Positions 12,983 through 13,008 of a stretch of DNA of 44,405 nt are shown piece after piece. How positions within the stretch are numbered: position 1 is the first letter of the stretch; every line of letters starts with the position of its first letter. The notes under the pieces were generated by a model. It saw only the letters and a program-made list of their open reading frames with translations. It made no database searches and was not told the DNA's origin. Position numbers and translations under genes: made by a program. Source of the DNA: Escherichia phage EC3-1; sequence record PQ571288.1; one strand, written 5' to 3'.

Positions 12983-13008
12983 AAGGCCCCGTTTGGGGCC
13001 TTAGTTTT
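12983..13008. terminator. Bidirectional rho-independent terminator (stem AAGGCCCC/GGGGCCTT, loop GTTT)
   Basis: Perfect 8-bp stem between convergent gene ends, T-rich on both sides; same stem recurs at 25492 and 32808. Confidence 0.7.

Follow-up and report, generated by a model that had tools for sequence, protein, structure and literature searches.

A single hairpin sequence recurs at three convergent gene junctions of Escherichia phage EC3-1 and is predicted to act as a bidirectional terminator

The window analysed here is the whole 44,405-nucleotide sequence of Escherichia phage EC3-1 (PQ571288.1), read 5' to 3' on one strand. A repeat search of the window found that its ends were identical over 141 nt (1-141 = 44265-44405), and we therefore took it to be a complete genome of about 44,264 bp, assembled as a circle. 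The Megablast matches were Kagunavirus and Jerseyvirus phages (Guernseyvirinae) of E. coli and Salmonella, at approximately 85-89% identity, and the gene order agreed with that of the annotated Escherichia phage phiWAO78-1. The genome is that of a Kagunavirus-like siphophage of the Guernseyvirinae. No phage RNA polymerase was found among the annotated features of phiWAO78-1. Transcription by the host polymerase is therefore expected, and intrinsic termination would apply.

Genes converge at four junctions in the window (Table 1). At three of them, denoted sites 1, 2, and 3, the gap between the genes contains the 20-nt hairpin AAGGCCCC-N4-GGGGCCTT. Exactly three copies were present in the window with 0 mismatches, and no further copies were found in the window when up to 2 mismatches were allowed. 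In dinucleotide-preserving shuffles of the window the mean number of matches was 0.01, and 0 of 100 shuffles reached three. A preliminary description of this DNA had reported the stem at three places with the loops GTTT (site 1), GAAA (site 2), and GTAA (site 3), and all three proved to be exact copies, against about 0.01 expected by chance. The ends that it gave (13008, 25517, and 32830) lie a few bases beyond the stems. It had also placed the stem at all three convergent strand switches of the genome; there are four such junctions, and the fourth (3714-3745) has a different hairpin. An Rfam scan of the whole window returned no family at threshold.

Table 1 Convergent junctions, related hairpins, and promoter-like motif copies in the window.
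Feature	Coordinates	Strand	Sequence elements	Neighbouring genes
Site 1	12976..13009		TAG (12976-78, +), spacer AGAA, AAGGCCCC-GTTT-GGGGCCTT (12983-13002), spacer AGTT, antisense TAA (13007-09, -)	45-aa ORF 12841..12978 (+); tailspike gene 13007..15292 (-)
Site 2	25486..25519		TAA (25486-88, +), spacer GAAA, AAGGCCCC-GAAA-GGGGCCTT (25493-25512), spacer AGTT, antisense TAA (25517-19, -)	76-aa ORF 25258..25488 (+); tail tube gene 25517..26692 (-; Pfam Phage_tube_2)
Site 3	32801..32833		TAA (32801-03, +), spacer AACT, AAGGCCCC-GTAA-GGGGCCTT (32808-32827), spacer TTA, antisense TGA (32831-33, -)	70-aa ORF 32591..32803 (+); Hoc-like head decoration gene 32831..33292 (-)
Fourth convergent junction	3714..3745		AAGGGGC-GTTAA-GCCCCTT (3726-3744)	ORF 3402..3716 (+; phrog_2638, E=1e-25); HTH regulator gene 3734..3949 (-; Pfam HTH_3, E=1e-12)
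Degenerate paralog	7477..7503	+	AACTAAGGCCC-TTCATT-GGGCTTTTTT; A-rich lead AACTAAGG, as in the main element	
Promoter-like motif copies	171-214, 23347-23390, 32528-32595, 43026-43072; also 3970-3999, 4014-4043, 6750-6779, 10312-10341			

The three sites are built alike. The converging stop codons are 27-28 nt apart at each, the hairpin fills this gap, and 3-4 nt separate the stop codon from the stem on either side. The position between converging gene ends described earlier was confirmed, as stop codons on both strands flank each copy. The sequence shared by the sites is longer than the stem first described and extends to AAAAGGCCCC-N4-GGGGCCTTAGTTTTA, which is found on the + strand at sites 1 and 2 and on the - strand at site 3. 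The extended motif at site 3 is therefore in inverse orientation relative to the other two. A TTA within the extended motif is the antisense of the TAA stop of the opposing gene and lies at a constant offset. Site 1 closes the + strand replication module as well as the - strand tail/tailspike operon. At site 2, the gene directly upstream of the 76-aa ORF encodes an HNH (AP2-type) homing endonuclease (24774..25244), and the ORF itself aligns with just the C-terminal third of a protein family about 235 aa long (phrog_2452; ATPase phrog_17613). Insertion of the endonuclease may have truncated or split the gene of this ORF.

We then analyzed the hairpins for the features of intrinsic terminators. 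On either strand the stem has 8 bp, comprising 6 G-C and 2 A-U pairs, and is closed by a tetraloop. The energy of the bare hairpin ranged from -14.9 to -15.8 kcal/mol over both strands (site 1, -15.0; site 2, -15.8 on the + strand and -14.9 on the - strand). The 61-nt contexts folded better than shuffled sequences on both strands, with z-scores of -3.0 to -6.5, and a scan for terminator patterns reported the sites on both strands. Each hairpin is bordered by an A-tract and, on its opposite side, by a U-tract. The T-rich flanks noted in the preliminary description were seen 3' of the hairpin when either strand is read, with 6-7 U in the next 10 nt.

The tails differed between the two directions of each site. 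The strong direction was the - strand at site 1, where it would serve the tail/tailspike operon (tail UUUUCUCUAC, 4 leading U), the - strand at site 2, for the operon ending at the tail tube gene (UUUUUCUUAC, 5 leading U), and the + strand at site 3, for the small cargo gene (UUUUAUCAUU, 4 leading U). The other direction at each site has an interrupted U-tract, UUAGUUUU, with 2 leading U; the tails read this way are UUAGUUUUAA on the + strand of site 1 and UUAGUUUUAU on the - strand of site 3. Tail scores were 2.6-2.8 with the interrupted tract versus 3.7-4.4 in the strong direction. Termination in the UUAGUUUU direction could therefore be weak.

These features point to a simple arrangement. 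RNA transcribed from either strand would form one and the same 8-bp stem. The A-rich lead, which holds the stop codon of the upstream gene, would be the template of the U-rich tail when read from the opposite side. We propose that a single 20-nt palindrome in a gap of 27-28 nt would in this way stop both converging polymerases no more than about 10 nt from the end of the opposing gene. The weaker direction may rely on an extended stem or on head-on collision of polymerases. [quoted passage not shown] The preliminary description had already read them as bidirectional terminators, and this holds up well computationally: hairpin energy, the geometry of the A- and U-tracts, the position between converging stop codons, the conservation at orthologous junctions, the occurrence of substitute hairpins, and prior annotation in relatives all argue for it. 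From these lines of evidence we infer that termination does occur at the hairpins and that the two directions differ in strength. A literature search found no transcript 3'-end mapping in Guernseyvirinae, and the time-course RNA-seq paper on K1B4, which describes a Kagunavirus transcriptome, does not mention terminators.

It seems very unlikely that the hairpins serve mainly to stabilise the 3' ends of longer read-through transcripts or to signal their processing, rather than to release polymerase. Read-through across a convergent gap of 27 nt would produce full antisense RNA to essential genes, and the leading U-run of the strong direction together with the mirrored A-tract is classic terminator anatomy. 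What would fit such a role is the stability of the hairpins (about -15 kcal/mol), the GNRA-type loops of some of them (GAAA, GUAA), and the weak U-tract in one direction per site, as well as the presence of AGCCCC/GGGGCU-type hairpins within the co-directional late operon (e.g., 34379-34394). However, the two functions are not exclusive, since a transcript released at the hairpin would still carry it as a protective 3' end.

The hairpin of the fourth convergent junction is arranged differently from the three terminator candidates. The stop codon of the HTH regulator lies inside its loop, and the last codons of this gene form the 3' arm. Its tails are UUUCUUUUUU in the - direction versus UUCACCCAAC in the + direction, with a good U-tract in the - direction only, and it is predicted to work one way only. 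The degenerate paralog of the main element sits between two co-directional genes, those encoding SSB (6835..7461) and DNA polymerase (7523..9706). Its + strand tail is UUUUUUACUA, and the outer G pairs, as G.U, on the + strand only. The paralog is therefore probably a terminator or attenuator of the + strand alone. The version of this paralog in phiWAO78-1 has a perfect stem.

Other terminator-like hairpins were observed within the co-directional late operon. One, AGCCCCGAAAGGGGCT (34379-34394), lies between a 493-aa gene, which by position relative to phiWAO78-1 is the portal gene, and a 358-aa head morphogenesis gene. Another, AGAGGGACCGAAGTCCCTCT (29841-29860), follows a 349-aa gene that is by position the major capsid gene. 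Both are probably partial terminators or attenuators.

The window also contains a palindromic motif resembling a promoter or operator, GTGAATAGT..CTATTAT, with overlapping sigma70-like hexamers, at divergent junctions and in the early + strand region. It agrees with the PHIRE 'phage promoter' consensus of fBC-Eco01. In the paper on that phage the motif was assigned to a phage RNA polymerase (PMC9825357), whereas the annotated relative phiWAO78-1 lists none. The divergent junctions thus appear, like the convergent ones, to reuse one palindromic element. The repeats at 23348 and 32528 were considered as possible drivers of the small + strand modules terminating at sites 2 and 3; the motif is palindromic and lies at divergent junctions, so its sequence gives no direction. 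A second family of hairpins is formed by a perfect inverted copy of 28 nt, TAGCGCCCCGCTTTATGGCGGGGCTTTA, at 453-480 and 32229-32256. A copy of the promoter-like motif is found about 250-290 nt upstream of each, and the intervening sequences are unrelated. These are two short transcription units with like ends and unlike contents, possibly small RNAs or micro-ORFs.

To follow the hairpins across relatives, we used a comparative set of 65 related IMG/VR loci (L002-L066), in which each site was anchored on its conserved flanking protein. The same hairpins were found at the orthologous junctions in about 50 relatives. At the orthologous junction, 13 of 23 related loci had the hairpin for site 1, 52 of 54 for site 2, and all 34 for site 3. 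The 10 loci without it at the site 1 junction are Jersey-like; in these, one more small gene precedes the hairpin. The two exceptions at site 2 carry unrelated GC hairpins there (GGGGGCC-TAAC-GGCCCC in L034; a different stem followed by T's in L009). This substitution by unrelated hairpins suggests that the function has been kept and not the sequence alone.

The stem itself hardly varied. Among 63 distinct orthologous and paralogous copies, 99.8% of the cells were paired, 5 of the 8 pairs never varied, and changes on both sides were confined to 2 pairs (4 cells). The few compensatory variants were GAGGCCCC..GGGGCCTC and GAAGCCCC..GGGGCTTT; these, together with the substitute hairpins of L034 and L009, speak for structure and function. 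The preliminary description had taken the conserved stem and variable loop as a sign of selection on structure, and with so few pairs changed on both sides this argument does not carry. An invariant stem with a variable loop is sequence conservation and is hardly informative on structure. That the stem is almost invariant could also reflect a constraint at the DNA level.

The loops varied mostly by reverse-complement flips. The pair GAAA/TTTC accounted for 62 of 117 instances, and GTAA/TTAC, GTTT/AAAC, GTTAA/TTAAC, and ATTAT/ATAAT were also found. Both loop orientations occur among relatives (L002-L066) whose stems and both flanks are identical, and point-mutated loops occur as well. The flips are consistent with repeated inversion or template switching inside the palindrome. 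For a terminator that works in two ways, a loop flip would be essentially neutral.

Three identical stems that share about 29 nt, one of them inverse, together with a degenerate fourth copy, might suggest that the copies are kept alike by ongoing gene conversion between sites, or that a small mobile palindrome of the REP or MITE type has been spreading in the genome. Under conversion the loops within a genome should resemble each other, yet their likeness among sites was 0.21 versus 0.25 by permutation (P=0.94). Within-genome loops are thus no more alike than chance, which indicates that the three copies are not homogenised and that each is conserved at its own junction. The copies were found only at fixed orthologous junctions, with 1-4 per contig and usually 2-3, and there were no extra insertions and no target-site duplications. 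A mobile element was rejected on the basis of this restriction to orthologous junctions, and we give conversion or mobility as the source of the likeness almost no credence. The identity of the three copies would instead mean that the terminator element is old and has been strongly conserved at each orthologous junction across the Guernseyvirinae, and not that copying between sites is ongoing.

The hairpins coincide with sharp edges of homology between relatives. On the variable side of all three sites, the mean pairwise identity dropped from about 0.9-1.0 to a random level of about 0.25-0.3 no more than about 8 nt past the stem. The unrelated sequences on the far side fell into 12 classes at site 1, 19 at site 2, and 16 at site 3; these correspond to differing tailspike 3' ends at site 1 and to differing cargo genes at sites 2 and 3. 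Most of the unrelated tailspike and cargo genes share an end point, a TAA located 4 nt from the stem.

To see how far the motif has spread, we scanned IMG/VR for TAAAACTAAGGCCCC-N(3-6)-GGGGCCTT and obtained 110 stretches, nearly all from Guernseyvirinae. Eight stretches had low similarity to the window. Two of these (L150 and L129) are family-like, and two (L080 and L107) have some genes in common with it. We rejected L067, L097, and L120 as cases of transfer; these contigs are AT-rich and unrelated, and either the TAA does not close a genuine ORF or the motif match could represent a convergent terminator. Extended homology among the low-similarity stretches was found in L084 only, which is part of a 73-kb contig (IMGVR_UViG_3300045988_020372, 72,982 bp). 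This contig is N4-like, its nearest annotated relative being Salmonella phage vB_SalP_TR2 (Schitoviridae). At 13416-13552 of L084, the extended motif TAAAACTAAGGCCCC..GGGGCCTT stands directly after a 668-aa tailspike-like ORF, accompanied by about 110 nt that match the small gene next to it in Guernseyvirinae at 84-90% identity. The element has therefore moved with a tailspike cassette between phage families. As the homology runs about 110 nt past the hairpin, the crossover in this case lies outside it.

The boundaries raise the question of whether the element of about 30 nt (stop codon, spacer, and hairpin) is kept mainly as a recombination linker for the exchange of cassettes, with termination secondary. 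A terminator that ends a conserved gene beside a variable neighbour would look like a boundary anyway, so the presence of a short conserved sequence exactly at the homology edge of all three sites is compatible with a linker but does not require one. The many unrelated far-side classes, with their common TAA end point, fit such a role, and so does the motif behind the tailspike gene of L084 with its Guernseyvirinae homology; the L084 crossover, however, is not within the hairpin, and the motif matches in the three AT-rich contigs could be convergent terminators. A second promoter/terminator pair in the window brackets unrelated inserts as well. Shared stretches of 20-30 nt are barely long enough for homologous recombination. 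On balance we find a primary linker role unlikely, and we retain the reading as bidirectional terminators.

A related and rather doubtful proposal is that the element is, beyond its role as a terminator, a selected 'docking' sequence, in which an invariant palindrome of about 30 nt combined with frequent template switching, visible as the loop flips, would make a preferred crossover point. If this is true, tailspike and cargo cassettes could be exchanged in register within the Guernseyvirinae and, at times, with phages of other families such as the N4-like L084. The common TAA of many unrelated genes, 4 nt from the stem, would be accounted for as well.

The finding in itself matters little, as the elements would be standard bidirectional intrinsic terminators that are already listed for the subfamily. 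Its uses are mostly practical. The elements delimit the transcription units of Kagunavirus and Jerseyvirus phages, a group employed in phage therapy work, and show precisely where the swappable tailspike and cargo slots have their edges, which is useful for host-range engineering. The hairpin is also a compact, conserved 20-nt part that is predicted to act as a two-way terminator in E. coli and Salmonella. In addition, a modest comparative study of phage 'punctuation' and its evolution could draw on the loop flips, the sharp edges of mosaic homology, and the transfer to an N4-like phage.

Several known systems resemble what we observed. Small loop inversions in hairpins and quasipalindromes arise by template-switch mutagenesis, and hairpin-associated inversions are found in chloroplast DNA. 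The likeness lies in the reverse-complement loop pairs of close relatives with identical stems and flanks. The elements here, however, are predicted phage terminators, and the mechanism is one that we infer from the loop pairs. Under the modular theory of Susskind and Botstein, mosaic phage modules are exchanged, and boundary or 'linker' sequences between such modules have been reported in lambdoid phages. The hairpins are similar in that a short conserved sequence lies precisely where homology between relatives ends. They differ in that terminator function would explain their conservation without a role in recombination.

The closest precedents are in the same phage subfamily. In the list for the Kagunavirus Golestan (PMC7203180, Table S5), terminators T06 and T07 have the sequences GGCCCCGAAAGGGGCCTTAGTTTTATGC and GGCCCCTTTCGGGGCCTTTTTCTTACAA and occupy adjacent positions, one on each strand. 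The same list (PMC7203180) also contains T09, T10, which is the SSB/polymerase paralog, and T11, which is the ortholog of the fourth junction, while T01 and T04 are orthologs of the late-operon hairpins described above. For fBC-Eco01, T1/T2 are given on both strands (PMC9825357, Table S2). The terminator calls in these relatives were made with ARNold/MFOLD on both strands. The record of the Jerseyvirus phi135 (GenBank MH992509.1) has two rho-independent terminator annotations at the ortholog of site 2, one for each strand. A short blastn query found the element in 886 phage records, mostly of Salmonella and Escherichia phages, several of which have a 'terminator' feature under the match. The elements of Golestan, fBC-Eco01, and MH992509.1 share with those described here the stem (GGCCCC/GGGGCC with AA/TT), the flanks (TAAAACT... 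and ...AGTTTTA), the junctions, and the prediction on both strands. They were listed as computational predictions, without comment on the reuse of the stem, the loop flips, or the mosaic boundaries. As they have already been predicted and annotated in the same subfamily, the terminators themselves are not new.

Bidirectional terminators between convergent genes have reportedly been detected in E. coli by SEnd-seq, in work by Ju et al. from 2019. At convergent genes they form an established class in this host and occur in other bacteria too (Wang et al., bioRxiv 10.1101/2022.10.23.513370). The phage hairpins resemble this class in that one GC-rich palindrome, bordered by A- and U-tracts, lies in a very short gap between the genes and may be usable from both strands. 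They differ from it in that the phage copies are predicted, that one direction per site has an interrupted tract, and that one sequence is found at three junctions of a 44-kb genome.
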